A stretch of DNA of 64,000 nt from Escherichia phage vB_Eco_F25. The notes under the pieces are model-generated. The model was not told the origin of the DNA, ran no database searches, and saw only the letters and a list, made by a program, of their open reading frames with translations. Position 1 is the stretch's first letter. Every line of letters starts with the position of its first letter. Location of the stretch: the sequence record OP870144.1; one strand, given 5' to 3'. Positions 2,893 to 47,954 of this stretch are shown one piece after another. The position numbers and the translations under genes were made by a program.

Positions 2893-3486
2893 TTATTTCA
2901 GAGAATTAATGTATTCCTGAACATCGGCAGAAGTGGTTTCAACCCCAGAAATATTACCGTTAAAGGTTTCAACTCGAGCAAGAGTATCTTCAATATCAAC
3001 CTTAGTTAGCGCTGCGATTTCAACTACATCATCGGCAGTACTAATTCCAAGGGCATTTGCCGCACGAGTTTCACGGATATATTCCAATTTAACTGCAAGT
3101 TCTTGGCGAGCATCATCTAACTCAACTACTTTCTTGGCGATTTCAATTCGCATTTCAGCATAACCATCAGCCTTAGTAGTCAACTGTTCAGCTGTTCGAC
3201 GATATAGCAAACCGAGTTTAGCATGCATTGTTACATCTTGACCCTCGGAAAGAAGCTTGCGAATTTCACGCTCTTTTGATTCGGCTTGTCGATTCTTTTC
3301 GATAACAAGTTCACGAATACGTTTTTCTTCATTAATAGATTTAACAGAAGCAGTTTTTAGATCTTTAATTTTATCAAGCAGTTTTGCTGCTGCAGCAGTA
3401 TACTGTTCTTCAACAGATAGATTTTTAGCCATAGCAGAACCAAGTTTAGTGCGAATAAACTCAACAATTTTCTTCAGTGTGTTCAT
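2893..3486 (-). CDS. Alpha-helical coiled-coil protein (possibly PspA/IM30-like)
   Basis: 197 aa, AAGGAA SD; heptad-rich, charged, low-complexity helical composition; PspA resemblance is weak and by eye only. Confidence 0.55.
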
Positions 3487-3587
3487 AGTATTTCCTTAGG
3501 TTAATTGAGATTTAAAATCCGTAGGAGTATAATACTCTATCGTCAAATTATAGGCTCATAATATCTCAATCATGAGCCCGTGTAAAC

Positions 3588-3851
3588 TTATTTCATATTA
3601 TTGAAATATTCTTCTGCGATTTCATCGTTATCATGGTAAACTTTAGAAGACAGTTTAACATAACCTTCAGCAGTGAACATATTAATCACAACTTTTACAG
3701 TATACCACTGACCGTCTTCATTACCCATTACTGCGTAAGTTTCAAACATCGGATGGTCAGGACCGATGACTTTAATATCATTCACTGTACGACCGAAATC
3801 TTCTGAAACGCATTTCATAAAGAAGTTGAACAGTTCGCCGTAATTATCCAT
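3588..3851 (-). CDS. Hypothetical protein
   Basis: Track ORF begins at TTG; ATG (MDNYGELF...) 12 nt downstream with GGAG SD; early promoter upstream. Confidence 0.6.
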   Translation of the reverse strand: MDNYGELFNFFMKCVSEDFGRTVNDIKVIGPDHPMFETYAVMGNEDGQWYTVKVVINMFTAEGYVKLSSKVYHDNDEIAEEYFNNMK

Positions 3852-3894
3852 TTCATTCTCCAAGTTATTTTCTGTATCAGTAGTTGATAGTTGT

Positions 3895-4057: not shown

Positions 4058-4083
4058 CAAAAAGCCCTATCATTTAGATAGGG
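4058..4083 (-). terminator. Rho-independent terminator
   Basis: Minus-strand hairpin CCCTATC-UAAAU-GATAGGG followed by U5, just after the stop of 4092..4655. Confidence 0.55.
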
Positions 4084-4091
4084 ATTTAAAA

Positions 4092-4655
4092 TTATTTATC
4101 TAGTTTAGTTATTATAGCTTCTGCGGCAGCTTTTAGCTTAGATGCGGTGTTAATACGATTTTTAATTTCAGTATACGCATCGCCAAGAACATCAAGGCTA
4201 TCAGAATAAACGCTTACACTATTGCGTTCGCTATTTGAAATAGAACCTTTAGTTTTACGATCAAAATCGATGTACACGTCTTGAAGATCACGGGCTGCCT
4301 TCTTTGCATCATCCAATGCATCAAGAGCTTTATTCAAAGCATTAACGTATTTTTTAGTGTCGAACATATTCTTAGAAATTTTAACAGGCGCACGTTCAGG
4401 AGTAGCTAAGGCAGATTTAGGAACCTGAGCGCCAGATGCCAGTTTCTTAGAAATTTTGAAAAATGCTTTATTGAATTTATTTTCTTGACTCATCGTAAAA
4501 GAACTATTATCAATGTTATACATTTCAATAGCTTTAGCTTTCCACTTAAGAAAATCGCCACGGTCTTTTGGGTCCAATTGGAAGAATACTTTAGTAAGTT
4601 CTGCTTCAGATGGTAATTTTGCTGCTTCGGTTAAAAATTCGGCATAGGTTTTCAT
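4092..4655 (-). CDS. Internal (head-packaged) protein with capsid-targeting sequence
   Basis: 187 aa; N-terminus MKTYAEFLTE|AAK matches T4 IP CTS with gp21 (L/I)xE cleavage motif; AAGGA SD. Confidence 0.7.
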   Translation of the reverse strand: MKTYAEFLTEAAKLPSEAELTKVFFQLDPKDRGDFLKWKAKAIEMYNIDNSSFTMSQENKFNKAFFKISKKLASGAQVPKSALATPERAPVKISKNMFDTKKYVNALNKALDALDDAKKAARDLQDVYIDFDRKTKGSISNSERNSVSVYSDSLDVLGDAYTEIKNRINTASKLKAAAEAIITKLDK

Positions 4656-4744
4656 TTAAAATCCTTGAAATAATTTATCGGTCAGTTATTAATTATTTAT
4701 TACTTTGTTATTATCCGTAACAGCATTCTCTATGCGATTCAAAC

Positions 4745-4773
4745 TAAAAAGCCCCAACCTTTCGGTCGAGGCT
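4745..4773 (-). terminator. Rho-independent terminator
   Basis: 10-bp GC-rich stem with GAAA loop then U5 on minus strand; near-identical copy at 5300..5328. Confidence 0.55.
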
Positions 4774-4780
4774 AAGAATG

Positions 4781-5254
4781 TTATTTGATTTGTTTAGCAG
4801 ACCAAATGCGGTCTTTGATGATTTTTTGGAGATCTTCAACATACTCTAGGTCATGAGCATGTGGATTATCTTTGAAACTATAGGCACGGGCTAATTTTTG
4901 GCCTTCGGTTTTAATTACTAAAAGCTCTTTAAGGATAGCTTCATATTTAGCGATAATTCCTTTAACAATATTTTTTTCTTGTGCAGCTTTAGGATCTGCT
5001 TTAGGAGCAGGTTTACCGGAAGGTTTTTCGAAAGCCGCACCAGTAGCAACCAGACTTTTCCAGGCGGTGGTAACATAGTTACCCACAAAGCCTTCAGCTC
5101 TCATATCGTCGTAGAACTTGTACCGGGATTCGTCAGAAGCATCTTTATAAGAATATTTACCAGATTTAATAGCAGCAGTTGCTACAGCGCGAACATCTGA
5201 AGCGGATGCTTCATTTAACACCGCTTCATTTAAAAATTGAGCATATGATTTCAT
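4781..5254 (-). CDS. Internal (head-packaged) protein with capsid-targeting sequence
   Basis: 157 aa; N-terminus MKSYAQFLNE|AVL; AGGAAA SD; late promoter immediately upstream. Confidence 0.7.
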   Translation of the reverse strand: MKSYAQFLNEAVLNEASASDVRAVATAAIKSGKYSYKDASDESRYKFYDDMRAEGFVGNYVTTAWKSLVATGAAFEKPSGKPAPKADPKAAQEKNIVKGIIAKYEAILKELLVIKTEGQKLARAYSFKDNPHAHDLEYVEDLQKIIKDRIWSAKQIK

Positions 5255-5290: not shown

Positions 5291-5298
5291 TATTTATA
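5291..5298 (-). promoter_or_regulatory. Late promoter TATAAATA
   Basis: Reverse complement reads TATAAATA about 35 nt upstream of the internal-protein gene start. Confidence 0.5.
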
Positions 5299-5299
5299 C

Positions 5300-5328
5300 T
5301 AAAAAGCCCCAACCTTTCGGTCGGGGCT
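5300..5328 (-). terminator. Rho-independent terminator after the tRNA/small-RNA cluster
   Basis: Minus-strand hairpin AGCCCCGACC-GAAA-GGUUGGGGCU followed by U5. Confidence 0.55.
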
Positions 5329-5379
5329 AAGCCTTGCGGCAACCTTGTCGGGGTTCCACCTGCTAAGGCAAGTGTTTGT

Positions 5380-5470
5380 ACGAAACGCCGGGATTCGAAC
5401 CCGGTTATTAAGCAGTTGACGCTACTCAATATTTTTAAAAGGCCATATCTCGACCATATCCGAACGTTCC
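5380..5470 (-). ncRNA. tRNA-like structured RNA (T-arm plus acceptor-like 3' end)
   Basis: Minus-strand CCGGG-TTCGAAT-CCCGG T-arm followed by 7-nt acceptor-like strand; no canonical cloverleaf found by eye; position matches where T4 carries small stable RNAs. Confidence 0.3.
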
Positions 5471-5644
5471 GTCAAAAACGCTACTCGGCTTACGGCAAAG
5501 ATATTTCCTCGAATCGATAATTCGGTGCGCCGTTTCTGCTGTGATATAAGGGGACATTAACAAAACATAAAGATTTATTAATGCCAGTCCTTAAACAGGG
5601 AACATCAGTCCGACGACTTGCCGGTAGCGACCCGGCTTCTTGTT

Positions 5645-5719
5645 TGGTATCCCGCCCTGGGATCGAACCAGGACCGCAAACTTAGAAGGATCGTATGCTA
5701 TCCATTACACCAGCGGGAC
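5645..5719 (-). tRNA. tRNA-Arg (anticodon TCT), CCA encoded
   Basis: Acceptor GTCCCGC/GCGGGAT, anticodon loop CTTCTAA, T-loop TTCGATC, 3' ACCA. Confidence 0.8.
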
Positions 5720-6341
5720 GTAATTTATTTAAAAGACAAGACAAATCGGAAATCTCATCTTTTTCTAAAACTACCAAATTTTCTAAAGCTTTCCATTTAC
5801 AAAGATCTCTATCTCTTTTATATCCTTTGACTTCTATATAAAAATCATAAGTGGGTAAATAAAAATCAGGAAAATAGAGATGTTCTGAACCTTCCCATTC
5901 GTAAGGAATTGGCTTTATTTTATTAGTATATTTGATATTGTGTTCTTTTAAAAACTTAGCAACTTTTAATTCCCAGGTCCCTTTAAATTTAAACCCGTCA
6001 AACTCATATGTTTTTACTCGACCAGAAACATTAGAAGCAGAATATGAATCAGGATTATCAAGAACAGCTTGCCGCATTCTTTTAGAATGTGCTTCTTTGC
6101 GTTCATTAGACCATACATATCCAGTATTGGCTTTTCTAAGTTTTTCTCTAGTTTTATCAGAGACTTTTATTTCTTTACCTAGTTCTTTGGCTTTGGTAAA
6201 TTGATTACTACCTTTAAGACCATAACGAGGGTTATTAGGGCCGCTCATATCTAATCTATTTGGGTTAGATTTGCACCGTTTTTCATGCTGCTTTAGTGAA
6301 TTTAAATTTTTACATTCTTTAGAACAATATTGACAAAGCAT
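5682..6341 (-). CDS. Free-standing putative homing endonuclease (Zn finger + NUMOD3-like repeats + PD-(D/E)XK-like motif)
   Basis: N-terminal CQYCSKEC...HEKRC; central SDKTREKLRKA / NERKEAHSKRMRQA; C-terminal FPDFYLP...YIEVKGY; second ATG has GGAG SD; last 12 codons and the stop lie inside tRNA-Arg. Confidence 0.65.
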   Translation of the reverse strand: MLCQYCSKECKNLNSLKQHEKRCKSNPNRLDMSGPNNPRYGLKGSNQFTKAKELGKEIKVSDKTREKLRKANTGYVWSNERKEAHSKRMRQAVLDNPDSYSASNVSGRVKTYEFDGFKFKGTWELKVAKFLKEHNIKYTNKIKPIPYEWEGSEHLYFPDFYLPTYDFYIEVKGYKRDRDLCKWKALENLVVLEKDEISDLSCLLNKLRPAGVMDSIRSF

Positions 6342-6410
6342 AATTTTCTCCATGAATTTTATATAGATATTTATTCATGGAGAAGTTGACTGCTCTACCT
6401 AATCAAAATA

Positions 6411-6490: not shown

Positions 6491-6548
6491 TGCTGATTGA
6501 CGGAATCGAACCGCAAGTGAGGTGCTCTACCTACTGAGCTAAATCAGC
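6491..6548 (-). pseudogene. Internally deleted tRNA-Thr-like remnant (about 57 nt)
   Basis: Perfect acceptor pair GCTGATT/AATCAGC, D-arm GCTC-AGTAGGTA-GAGC, anticodon 5' stem CCTCA + CTTG, then directly T-loop TTCGATT; only 72 nt lie between neighbouring tRNAs. Confidence 0.45.
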
Positions 6549-8030: not shown

Positions 8031-8339
8031 CTATTTTATTCCGCGTGATGCAATTGTGTTCTGCCGTTTAACACCAGTTTGTTTAAAGTCATGATTGTCG
8101 ATTTGATCAGTACGAGCAACTCCGAATGATGATTTGATCTTAGCTTTAGATCCTTTAGTTATAGAAATAAACATCTCGGAAGCCCCTTTCTTAAAGTCCG
8201 AGGCGATTACTTCAACGCCGTTCTTAGCAAGTGACTTCAGAATTGCCTCTGCATACTCATCGTCAAGACTCGTCTGAGTATTAATAACGAATGTCTTTGG
8301 CGCAGCCGCTTCATTGATAAATTCTTTAAATGTTTTCAT
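8031..8339 (-). CDS. Internal-protein-like small protein with capsid-targeting N-terminus
   Basis: 102 aa; MKTFKEFINE|AAAP; at the position T4 uses for ipI (between tRNAs and 57B). Confidence 0.65.
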   Translation of the reverse strand: MKTFKEFINEAAAPKTFVINTQTSLDDEYAEAILKSLAKNGVEVIASDFKKGASEMFISITKGSKAKIKSSFGVARTDQIDNHDFKQTGVKRQNTIASRGIK

Positions 8340-8399: not shown

Positions 8400-8672
8400 T
8401 CATTTTAAATAAATTGCGTATTTTTTATAACCCGCTGACTCATGACGAAGACCCTTATCATTAGCAAAACGCTCAATGTTATTAATTTGATTCTGGTCAA
8501 GTTCAGAGATGTCAAACACGAAAAAGTTACGTTTGTTACCAACTGTTACATAGTCAGTTAAATCAATATCATATAGGTAATTGATGTCAGCAATCAAAGT
8601 CTTGACAGCTTTGCTAATTTTTACTTTTTCGTTAAAAGCAGCTTCATTGATAAATTCTTTAAATGTTTTCAT
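8400..8672 (-). CDS. Internal-protein-like small protein with capsid-targeting N-terminus
   Basis: Track ORF starts at TTG; ATG gives MKTFKEFINE|AAF; GGAG SD. Confidence 0.65.
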   Translation of the reverse strand: MKTFKEFINEAAFNEKVKISKAVKTLIADINYLYDIDLTDYVTVGNKRNFFVFDISELDQNQINNIERFANDKGLRHESAGYKKYAIYLK

Positions 8673-37233: not shown

Positions 37234-37658
37234 TGATTCTAATCCCTGAAACTCATGAATTAGTTCTCGAGAATGTCGAAGCACTTATTCCTGAAGCACA
37301 GGGTCGCTTTGACGAGTTGTCTTCTGCTTTAAATAAAGACGATATAAATAAAATTATCGAGAATATGCTTGATGATGAAACTGATTTAGCGGTTGCATTA
37401 GCTTCTATTAATGAAAATATGCCGTTAAATGAATTCATCGTTAAACATGTTTCTGCCCGTGGTGAAATTACTCGCACTAAAGATCGCAAAACCCGCGAAC
37501 GTAATGCATTTCAAACTACCGGGTTGTCTAAAGCAAAACGTAGACAAATTGCTCGTAAAGCTACCAAAACGAAGATTGCCAATCCAGCAGGTCAATCTCG
37601 TGCTCAGCGTAAGCGTAAAAAAGCTCTTAAACGCCGTAAAGCATTAGGATTAAGCTAA
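37233..37658 (+). CDS. 68: Prohead core protein gp68
   Basis: 141 aa, basic C-terminus; T4 gp68 length and order. Confidence 0.85.
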
Positions 37659-38296
37659 TGAATGAACCCCAATTACTAATTGAAACTTGGGGTCAACCTG
37701 GCGAAATTATTGATGGCGTACCAATGCTTGAATCTCATGATGGAAAAGACTTAGGTTTAAAACCTGGTTTATACATCGAAGGAATATTTATGCAAGCGGA
37801 AGTCGTCAATAGAAATAAACGTCTTTATCCAAAACGCATATTAGAAAAAGCGGTAAAAGACTATATTAATGAGCAAGTTTTAACTAAACAAGCTCTCGGA
37901 GAATTAAATCATCCTCCACGCGCTAATGTTGACCCGATGCAAGCCGCTATCATTATAGAAGATATGTGGTGGAAAGGAAATGACGTATACGGACGAGCTC
38001 GTGTTATTGAAGGTGACCATGGTCCTGGAGATAAATTAGCAGCTAATATTCGTGCCGGATGGATTCCAGGAGTTTCTTCTCGTGGATTAGGTTCATTGAC
38101 TGACACAAATAAAGGTTATCGTATCGTAAACGAAGGATTCAAATTAACTGTAGGTGTTGATGCAGTATGGGGTCCAAGTGCTCCAGATGCATGGGTAACT
38201 CCTAAGGAAATTACAGAATCACAGACGGCGGAAGCCGATACAAGTGCCGATGACGCCTATATGGCTCTCGCAGAGGCCATGAAAAAAGCGTTATAA
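37658..38296 (+). CDS. 21: Prohead core protease gp21
   Basis: 212 aa, T4 gp21 length and order. Confidence 0.9.
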   Translation: MNEPQLLIETWGQPGEIIDGVPMLESHDGKDLGLKPGLYIEGIFMQAEVVNRNKRLYPKRILEKAVKDYINEQVLTKQALGELNHPPRANVDPMQAAIIIEDMWWKGNDVYGRARVIEGDHGPGDKLAANIRAGWIPGVSSRGLGSLTDTNKGYRIVNEGFKLTVGVDAVWGPSAPDAWVTPKEITESQTAEADTSADDAYMALAEAMKKAL

Positions 38297-38326: not shown

Positions 38327-39136
38327 ATGCTTAAAGAACAACTGATTGCCGAAGCGCAGAAAATTGATGCTTCCGTTGCTCTTGATAGTATTTTCGAATC
38401 AGTTAATATTTCTCCGGAAGCAAAAGAAACTTTCGGCACTGTATTCGAAGCTACCGTCAAGCAGCACGCCGTTAAATTAGCTGAATCTCATATCGCTAAA
38501 ATTGCTGAAAAAGCAGAAGAAGAAGTAGAAAAAAATAAAGAAGAAGCAGAAGAAAAAGCTGAGAAGAAAATCGCTGAGCAAGCTTCTAAATTCCTTGACC
38601 ATCTTGCAAAAGAATGGCTCACTGAAAATAAATTAGCAGTAGATAAAGGTATCAAAGCCGAACTGTTTGAATCCATGCTTGGTGGATTGAAAGAGCTCTT
38701 CGTTGAACACAACGTTGTTGTTCCAGAAGAATCAGTTGATGTTGTAGCTGAAATGGAAGAAGAACTGCAAGAACATAAAGAAGAATCAGCTCGTCTGTTC
38801 GAAGAACTCAATAAGCGTGACGCATATATCAATTATGTGCAGCGTGAAGTGGCATTGAGCGAAAGTACTAAAGATCTGACTGAGTCTCAAAAAGAAAAAG
38901 TCTCTGCTCTGGTCGAAGGTATTGATTATTCAGATGCATTCTCAAGCAAATTGAGTGCCATCGTAGAAATGGTGAAGAAATCTAATAAAGATGAAAGCGC
39001 TATTACTGAGAGTATAAATACTCCTGATACTGAAGCAGCCGGACTGAATTTCGTCACTGAAGCTGTAGAAGATAAATCTGCGCAAGGTGCAGAAGATATT
39101 GTAAGTGTATATGCGAAAGTCGCATCTCGTTTCTAA
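38327..39136 (+). CDS. 22: Prohead core scaffold protein gp22
   Basis: 269 aa, acidic coiled-coil, T4 gp22 length. Confidence 0.9.
   Translation: MLKEQLIAEAQKIDASVALDSIFESVNISPEAKETFGTVFEATVKQHAVKLAESHIAKIAEKAEEEVEKNKEEAEEKAEKKIAEQASKFLDHLAKEWLTENKLAVDKGIKAELFESMLGGLKELFVEHNVVVPEESVDVVAEMEEELQEHKEESARLFEELNKRDAYINYVQREVALSESTKDLTESQKEKVSALVEGIDYSDAFSSKLSAIVEMVKKSNKDESAITESINTPDTEAAGLNFVTEAVEDKSAQGAEDIVSVYAKVASRF
39013..39020 (+). promoter_or_regulatory. Late promoter TATAAATA inside the 3' end of gene 22 (P23-like)
   Basis: Exact TATAAATA about 135 nt upstream of the gene 23 ATG. Confidence 0.4.
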
Positions 39137-47723: not shown

Positions 47724-47954
47724 ATGTTACTAGGATTTAAACAATTTCTTTATGAAGCTTCTATTGATGAATTTATGGGTAAAATTGCCTCTTGTCAAAC
47801 ATTAGAAGGTTTAGAAGAACTTGAAGCTTATTATAAGAAAAGAGTCAAAGAAACTGAATTAAAAGATACTGATGACATCTCTGTAAGAGATGCTTTGGCA
47901 GGAAAAAGAGCTGAATTAGAAGATTCAGACGATGAAGTAGAAGAAAGCTTTTAA
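47724..47954 (+). CDS. uvsW.1: UvsW.1
   Basis: Track ORF starts at TTG; ATG gives 76 aa as T4 UvsW.1; acidic C-terminus. Confidence 0.75.
   Translation: MLLGFKQFLYEASIDEFMGKIASCQTLEGLEELEAYYKKRVKETELKDTDDISVRDALAGKRAELEDSDDEVEESF

Follow-up and report, generated by a model that had tools for sequence, protein, structure and literature searches.

In the 64,000-nucleotide stretch of Escherichia phage vB_Eco_F25 that we analyzed (sequence record OP870144.1; hereafter the window), a segment of a T4-like Tequatrovirus genome, two neighboring genes on the minus strand encode small proteins whose N-termini resemble the capsid-targeting sequence (CTS) of the internal head proteins of phage T4. Our analysis suggests, with a probability that we put at roughly two in three, that these proteins, here called A and B, are CTS-tagged head proteins processed by the prohead protease gp21, and that they come from a family unannotated as such in the records and profile libraries examined. 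Their sequences are identical to F25_0134 and F25_0135 of vB_Eco_F25, and the label in every record examined, including RB14ORF136 and RB27_136, is "hypothetical protein". Both open reading frames, as well as their N-termini, are as reported in a preliminary description made from the sequence alone. The genes, their tags and the two morphogenesis genes of the window that bear on them are as follows.

4092-4655, minus strand: gene A, 187 residues; phrog_2280, E 3.4e-53 over residues 1-181
4781-5254, minus strand: gene B, 157 residues; phrog_2280, E 5.8e-55 over residues 1-157
4626-4655, minus strand: CTS of gene A, codons 1-10, MKTYAEFLTE; predicted gp21 site between LTE and A
5225-5254, minus strand: CTS of gene B, codons 1-10, MKSYAQFLNE; predicted gp21 site between LNE and A
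37658-38296, plus strand: gp21 prohead protease (Peptidase_S77; PF03420, E 1.5e-111), expected to cut after (L/I)xE
38327-39136, plus strand: gp22 scaffolding core protein (T4_CASP; PF25623, E 3.2e-90), the structure to which the CTS targets cargo

N-terminal tags and predicted mature forms

In the 10-residue CTS of T4 internal protein III (IPIII), residues 4 and 7 govern targeting, while residues 8 and 10 govern processing by gp21 (PMC9026906). All four of these experimentally defined positions are present in A and B, both of which have Y4, F7, L8 and E10 followed by alanine, with Y4 and F7 identical to the residues of IPIII. Each of 36 family N-termini from several genera keeps the tag, position 7 being F, I, L or V and an aromatic residue standing at or near position 4, and the tag is retained across subfamilies whose pairwise identity to gene A amounts to ~14-25%. 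Among alleles of gene B, the CTS codons show nonsynonymous divergence (dN) of 0.03-0.23 compared to synonymous divergence (dS) of 0.6-1.5, which indicates purifying selection. A start of the type MK[TS][YF] was found in 4 of the 488 ATG-started open reading frames of at least 50 residues in the window, namely in A, B and two genes at the ipI locus. The late-promoter context, the basic mature proteins and the presence of the gp21 and gp22 genes in the window, which also encodes gp23, all agree with the interpretation of the N-termini as CTSs. This part of the preliminary description is supported.

Two further observations concern the motif itself. The ipI-locus genes form a second CTS pair (8031-8339 and 8400-8672, minus strand; MKTFKEFINE; 102 and 90 residues), which fall into phrog_2667 and phrog_7673 and for which other records give the name Ip7 in one case and "internal head protein" in the other. 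The only additional match of a relaxed CTS pattern was a uvsW.1-like open reading frame of 76 residues (phrog_1143; 47724-47954, plus strand) that starts with MLLGFKQFLYEA. This match is probably due to chance and was taken as a false-positive control of the motif.

We consider it very improbable that the common N-terminus is a mere relic of recombination between internal-protein genes with a 5' gene cassette in common and that A and B are ordinary cytoplasmic late proteins that are not packaged. Such a relic would fit the 76% identity of the two genes over their first 42 nucleotides, a stretch that includes the ribosome-binding region, as well as the cassette-like insertion at terminators and the negative virion proteome of a relative, WKM80661.1, in the available part of the source (both described below); the match of the relaxed motif to the unrelated uvsW.1-like frame points in the same direction. 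However, the tag is kept as amino acids across at least six genera in which the nucleotides have diverged and the protein bodies have fallen to 14-25% identity. It is also under purifying selection, and the residues that are kept, 4, 7, 8 and 10, are the ones that targeting and cleavage require (PMC9026906).

Processing at the tag would leave small basic proteins. In gene A, an (L/I)xE site occurs only once, and the predicted new N-terminus after LTE is AAKLPSEAELTK. Gene B has one internal site besides that of the CTS, a second LNE at residues 13-15, so that its predicted new N-termini are AVLNEASASDVR or ASASDVR. The predicted mature proteins have masses of 19.7 kDa (A) and 15.7-16.3 kDa (B) and isoelectric points (pI) of 9.46 and 9.2-9.3, respectively, matching the pI range of T4 IPI, IPII and IPIII (9.0-9.65). 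The T4 proteins are similar in further respects: they carry a 10-residue N-terminal CTS (MKTYQEFIAE in T4) with an (L/I)xE site followed by alanine, their mature forms are small, basic and rich in lysine, with 183 residues in IPIII compared to 177 in A, and their genes are dispensable and differ in presence between phages. In contrast, IPI, IPII and IPIII belong to phrog_4363, phrog_7857 and phrog_5341 and are encoded between denV and e or at the ipI locus, whereas A and B belong to phrog_2280, lie between e.8 and rnaC and are only predicted to be packaged. No sequence homology was detected between mature A or B and IPI, IPII or IPIII, and the Pfam family Phage_T4_IpIII was not matched. The ipI-locus proteins (Ip7 and "internal head protein") likewise have diverse bodies behind a conserved CTS and, according to PMC3012670, which cites Repoila et al. 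1994, are polymorphic in T-even phages. They differ from A and B in being single-domain proteins of ~90-100 residues that lie behind early-type promoters, are annotated as internal head proteins and fall into phrog_2667 and phrog_7673 instead of phrog_2280.

Domain plan, spread and variation of the family

In protein A, the CTS (residues 1-10) is followed by an N-domain of three helices (17-73), then by a disordered linker (76-96) and finally by a long helical hairpin (100-186). Protein B is built from the CTS (1-10), a small helical N-domain (~18-71), a Pro/Ala/Lys linker (~72-87) and a helical hairpin (88-154). AlphaFold2 (AF2) models of both are all-helical with two domains, at a mean predicted local distance difference test (pLDDT) score of 68 for A and 77 for B. 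The two bodies had been described as unrelated, which is true at the level of BLAST only. While a BLASTP alignment of A with B covers no more than the first 11 residues and a direct hhalign comparison was not significant (E 0.035; the CTS was stripped in all hhalign comparisons), profiles assign both to phrog_2280 and link each of them to a third subfamily. This C-type (205 residues, MKTYNEFLNE) occupies the same locus in Dhakavirus and Mosigvirus and was aligned to A with 94.9% probability (E 4e-8, 150 columns) and to B with 93.6% probability (E 2e-7, 102 columns).

All members have a common plan of tag, small helical N-domain, Pro/Ala/Lys linker and helical-hairpin C-domain, with which the AF2 models agree. 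Across the family, the N-domain occurs in two types and the C-domain in at least three, and they are found in different combinations: a B-type N-domain is joined to another kind of C-domain in phages of Klebsiella, Yersinia and Serratia, and an A/C-type N-domain to a "GLKVRGKYG" C-domain in Enterobacter and Klebsiella phages. Judged by the phrog_2280 matches, the hhalign links through the C-type, the common plan and the shuffled domains, A and B are paralogues that lie in tandem and have diverged strongly within a single Tevenvirinae-wide family, phrog_2280. Members include RB14ORF136, RB32ORF133c, RB69ORF149c, JS98 gp135-like, PG7 gp146 and KP01 00221. With these, A and B have in common the full-length profile match, the domain plan and the syntenic location, with the tRNA/rnaC cluster on one side and e.8/e.6 on the other, and no difference was found. 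In Shigella phage CT01 (L019:2501-2989), a variant of gene A lacks exactly 25 linker residues; the flexible linker appears dispensable, since the deletion falls between two KISK repeats (FKISK...VKISK).

In the databases searched, phrog_2280 is unnamed; neither a Pfam or NCBIfam model nor a solved structure exists for it, and it has not been assigned a function. Profile searches of Pfam, NCBIfam and PDB with A and B gave nothing above noise, and cytochrome b562, a weak match far under its cut-off, was rejected as a relative. The homology search of the mature parts that the preliminary description had proposed hence matched no known function, although it did link the two bodies through the C-type subfamily. 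When 1.84 billion representative proteins were searched with a profile, no more than 24 matches were obtained, and the idea of relatives outside T4-like phages was rejected for that set; the N-termini checked among them carry a CTS-like tag, except in fragments and chimeras. Word-seeded searches of 5.8 billion clusters yielded a few dozen matches; those of full length typically lay on contigs that, at ~165-175 kb, are as large as T4-like genomes. Fold searches recovered generic helical hairpins or family members only, such as RB69ORF149c (88% identity to gene A). Among proteins from metagenome assemblies, P0070, P0079, P0069 and P0078 combine the start or the middle of A or B with the C-terminal part of NudE or with other neighbors, which suggests natural deletions or recombinants across the e.2-e.8 block, or else assembly artefacts.

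The four subtypes of the family were found in 164 (A), 511 (B), 144 and 49 phage records, with the C-type reaching down to ~31% identity in its 144 records and extending to Karam-, Kanagawa-, Winkler- and Jiaodavirus. In all but one of the 164 records of gene A (163), identity is 95% or higher (dN/dS ~0.1). Gene B ranges from 98% to below 60% identity. Its N-domain falls into three allele classes (dN 0.23-0.36, dS saturated, dN/dS ~0.2), whereas its C-domain is nearly invariant (dN 0.02-0.04), and its alleles have recombined, as illustrated by two loci (L007 and L009) with the same tag and C-domain but different N-domains. No domain showed a signal of positive selection, as dN/dS was below 1 throughout (~0.2 in the variable domain, at most 0.1 elsewhere), and since both genes are under purifying selection they are functional. 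Gene content of the locus differs among relatives as well: T4 carries neither gene, some phages carry B only and others B and A, and of the Klebsiella phages ValerieMcCarty03 and ValerieMcCarty04 the former has no family member and the latter one. The locus thus does not vary in the manner of the ipI locus, and the term hypervariable, which had been applied to these loci, is appropriate for the N-domain of gene B and for locus gene content, but not for the near-invariant gene A or the C-domain of B.

The two genes do not substitute for IPII or IPIII, as IPIII is found alongside A or B in many phages. IPIII and gene A co-occur in Shfl2, ECML-134, PhAPEC2 and phiE142, IPIII and gene B in G8 and Nami, and a contig that encodes exactly protein A also has a Pfam IpIII match. 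Conversely, in the closely related Yersinia phage fPS-90 (L024, record positions 64310-65280), which carries A and B, ipII and ipIII are both missing between denV and e, where only ~60 bp with a predicted early promoter are found. This implies that internal-protein repertoires differ combinatorially among Tequatroviruses.

IPI* inhibits GmrSD, and the preliminary description had named A and B as candidates for injected anti-defence effectors, whose mature forms would be ejected with the DNA and block restriction or another defence in a similar way. We regard this role as unlikely, though it is the least unlikely of the alternatives discussed here. It would make use of the same CTS context as packaging in general, and the reshuffling of the three divergent N-domain classes of gene B against a near-invariant C-domain and tag, the exchange of N- and C-domains between genera and the differing presence of the genes in close relatives are circumstantial points in its favor. 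On the other hand, searches of Pfam, NCBIfam, PDB and PHROG revealed no homology to IPI* or to known anti-defence proteins, the variable domain lacks a positive-selection signal, gene A hardly varies and no experimental link to any defence system was found. Moreover, IPI* has a compact fold of two beta sheets flanked by helices (PMC3012670), in contrast to the all-helical models of A and B.

Predicted terminator-bounded late units between rnaC and e.8

In the direction of minus-strand transcription, the locus is arranged in the order tRNA cluster, tRNA-Arg, rnaD/rnaC, terminator T1, TATAAATA, gene B, terminator T2, AATAAATA, gene A, terminator T3 and e.8. Besides the genes themselves, the following features were found.

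5645-5719, minus strand: tRNA-Arg, next to the rnaC/rnaD homologues
5335-5644, minus strand: rnaC/rnaD homologues, upstream boundary of the locus; 93% nucleotide identity to the T4 rnaC-rnaD region
5305-5328, minus strand: terminator T1, AGCCCCGACCGAAAGGTTGGGGCT followed by TTTTT; stem of 10 pairs, 7 of them GC, with a GAAA loop
5291-5298, minus strand: predicted T4-type late promoter TATAAATA of gene B, 2 nucleotides past the run of T residues (T-run) of T1 and 44 nucleotides before the ATG
4750-4773, minus strand: terminator T2, AGCCTCGACCGAAAGGTTGGGGCT followed by TTTTT; downstream of gene B and near-identical to T1
4694-4701, minus strand: late-promoter-like octamer AATAAATA with one mismatch, 46 nucleotides before the ATG of gene A
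4065-4083, minus strand: terminator T3, CCCTATCTAAATGATAGGG followed by CTTTTT; downstream of gene A, with a different stem
3588-3863, minus strand: e.8 homologue, downstream boundary of the locus; 96% nucleotide identity to T4 e.8

T1 ends the upstream tRNA/rnaD/rnaC transcript, and its hairpin is also present in T4. As had been noted from the sequence, a late promoter directly follows a terminator, with TATAAATA at 5298-5291 behind the T-run of the 5328-5305 hairpin; in the record of fPS-90, a predicted late promoter is annotated at the equivalent site. An exact TATAAATA was found for gene B only, while gene A has the octamer with one mismatch. This AATAAATA is kept at position -46 in all three A-bearing loci examined and is a possible late promoter of gene A itself; otherwise, the gene would be expressed from the promoter of B by read-through of T2. 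We also found that near-identical terminators do not end both genes, as had been stated. Instead, the twin pair flanks gene B (5292-5331 upstream and 4737-4776 downstream, 93% identity over 40 nucleotides), and gene A ends in a different hairpin (4083-4065) that is 60% identical to the pair in register.

The arrangement is not confined to the window. For 19 genes of the family, from at least six genera (Tequatro-, Dhaka-, Mosig-, Karam-, Kanagawa-, Winkler- and Jiaodavirus), a terminator hairpin with its T-run is followed by a late-promoter-like octamer 34-46 nucleotides before the ATG. In 12 of these 19 loci the octamer is TATAAATA, and in the other 7 its first base is A, C or G ahead of ATAAATA; we infer that these variants are active. 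The window and ValerieMcCarty04 have exactly the same junction, CTTTTTAGTATAAATA, although their family proteins are only ~25% identical.

Comparison with T4, which has no gene between e.8 and rnaC, delimits the inserted parts. In T4, the rnaC terminator AGCCCCGACCGAAAGGTTGGGGCTTTTT, the same hairpin as T1 of the window, is directly followed by GGTATCTAAGCC. The window instead has AG-TATAAATA and gene B behind T1 as well as AGTTTG and gene A behind T2, and the T4-type flank resumes after T3 at GGTATCTAGGCC. In phages with B only (L003 and L005), T1, promoter, B and T2 are directly followed by the T4-type flank GGTATCTAGG. Judging from these junctions, each gene is, relative to T4, a predicted late cassette that is bounded by terminators and whose insertion point lies exactly behind a terminator T-run. 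In T4-type phages, Arbiol et al. reportedly described in 2010 mobile regulatory cassettes that consist of a promoter and a stem-loop (PeSLs). These are similar in that modules are bounded by repeated regulatory stem-loops, and the end-points of the A and B insertions or deletions lie exactly at such repeats. They differ in that PeSLs combine an early promoter with a stem-loop, whereas the repeat at A and B is an intrinsic terminator fused to a late promoter. Recombination would have taken place at these terminator-promoter repeats.

Several neighboring differences were observed. T4 gene e.7, located between e.6 and e.8 (L001:7969-8304), is absent in the window, where the e.6 and e.8 homologues are ~100 nucleotides apart (3486-3588). 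In several non-Tequatrovirus T4-like loci, among them that of Dhakavirus IME281 (L008), a predicted membrane protein of 184 residues without a CTS (MKLLKYLSWILLVPLDF...) is additionally encoded at the locus of A and B (L008:4645-5199, L009:5335-5889 and L012:4645-5199); it precedes a C-type gene in L008 and L012 and follows gene B in L009. Upstream, an open reading frame for a 223-residue endonuclease (5682-6353, minus strand; phrog_15137) occupies the slot of the T4 GIY-YIG homing endonuclease segB. It is weakly Phage_endo_I-like with a Cys-rich N-terminus, overlaps tRNA-Arg by 38 nucleotides, has only the tRNA-overlapping 46 nucleotides in common with T4 and is 97% identical to a gene in L007. 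An Rfam tRNA match at 6491-6548 (minus strand; 41 bits, 58 nucleotides) between tRNA-Met(cat) and tRNA-Ser, for which ARAGORN made no call, may be a truncated remnant, because it lies at the position of the T4 tRNA-Thr.

Virion evidence and proposed role

We infer the following course of targeting, cleavage, retention in the virion and ejection. Each gene would form an insulated late unit of terminator, late promoter, gene and terminator, so that A and B would be synthesized when proheads assemble. The N-terminal tag would dock them onto the gp22 scaffolding core, and gp21 would then cleave after LTE in A or LNE in B. The basic mature proteins (~20 and ~16 kDa, pI 9.2-9.5) would be kept in the head along with the DNA, in whose company they would reach the host.

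Several observations weigh against this course. The genes ipI, ipII and ipIII of T4 are preceded by early-type GTTTAC...TAnnAT promoters, as are the ipI-locus genes of the window, and none of these genes has an TATAAATA within 100 nucleotides. The late-type promoters of the phrog_2280 family thus imply that it is regulated differently from the canonical internal proteins, and unlike these it would form late-only, insulated transcription units. The lack of an exact TATAAATA ahead of gene A is a further point of this kind. In addition, direct packaging evidence for any family member was not found in the literature; A and B are not listed in the papers on the phages fPS-90, ECLFM1, MP1, ACG-C40 and UFV13, and no virion proteome was found for a phage that bears them. 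Finally, CsCl-purified particles of ValerieMcCarty03 and ValerieMcCarty04 were analyzed by LC-MS/MS in PMC13119998. The syntenic family member of ValerieMcCarty04, WKM80661.1 (194 residues, MKFKDFLTE...), lies in a canonical terminator-TATAAATA unit, and it has no peptide row for ValerieMcCarty04 virions in the available part of Supplementary Data S2. There, the peptide table is in gene order and covers the range of this gene, and the neighbors 80658 and 80662 do have rows.

In the same table, the CTS-bearing "internal virion proteins" WKM80648.1 and WKM80649.1 have dozens of peptide rows, and another CTS protein of the ipI locus has one spurious match only. The negative result for WKM80661.1 comes from a distant member, with ~25% identity to gene A and a different C-domain. 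It is also limited by an IPII-like protein that, in the same study, scored 1 versus 26 spectra in two sister phages. Because WKM80661.1 yielded no peptides, we have less confidence in the family as an abundant virion component, and the result is compatible with its members being low-copy cargo, core proteins removed at maturation or not packaged at all.

The second of these possibilities corresponds to a role as prohead-core accessory proteins, which would act in head assembly and then be degraded or expelled like gp22, gp67 and gp68, being neither virion components nor injected. We judge this improbable, even more so than an anti-defence role. The predicted strictly late, insulated expression would be typical of morphogenetic genes, the modelled helical-hairpin, coiled-coil-like C-domain may resemble scaffold-type proteins, albeit only generically, and T4 IPIII influences the rate of head assembly (PMC9026906). 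The failure to detect WKM80661.1 in ValerieMcCarty04 virions, despite its canonical late promoter, is consistent with such a role as far as the accessible table goes. Yet the family is dispensable, being absent from T4 and ValerieMcCarty03 and represented by gene A far less often than by gene B (164 compared to 511 records). With a single (L/I)xE site in A and one internal site in B, gp21 would not shred the proteins, and their basic charge resembles that of internal proteins that are retained.

We therefore favor packaged and gp21-processed head proteins, of which A and B could each serve as a DNA-associated internal protein whose variable N-domain engages a host factor. A more far-reaching proposal, which we offer as speculation and consider improbable in this full form, is that phrog_2280 comprises modular head-delivered effectors with a constant CTS, DNA-riding linker and hairpin and with swappable N-domains that recognize different host targets, and that the unit of terminator, late promoter, gene and terminator is a recombination cassette by which such cargo genes spread among T4-like phages of different genera.

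The annotation gap touches hundreds of genomes, and A and B provide a clean, testable candidate pair of packaged proteins. If they were not packaged, a CTS-like N-terminus alone would be an unreliable predictor, which would matter for annotation as well as for T4-based engineering of protein delivery. If they are loaded and injected, a family present in hundreds of T4-like genomes could be relabeled from "hypothetical" to "internal head protein", more proteins would be known to be delivered by T-even phages before gene expression starts, and two concrete, dispensable candidates to be tested against host defence systems would be at hand. By means of the conserved tag, packaged proteins of Tevenvirinae could be sought with a simple sequence rule, and the anatomy of the cassettes suggests how such genes are gained and lost.

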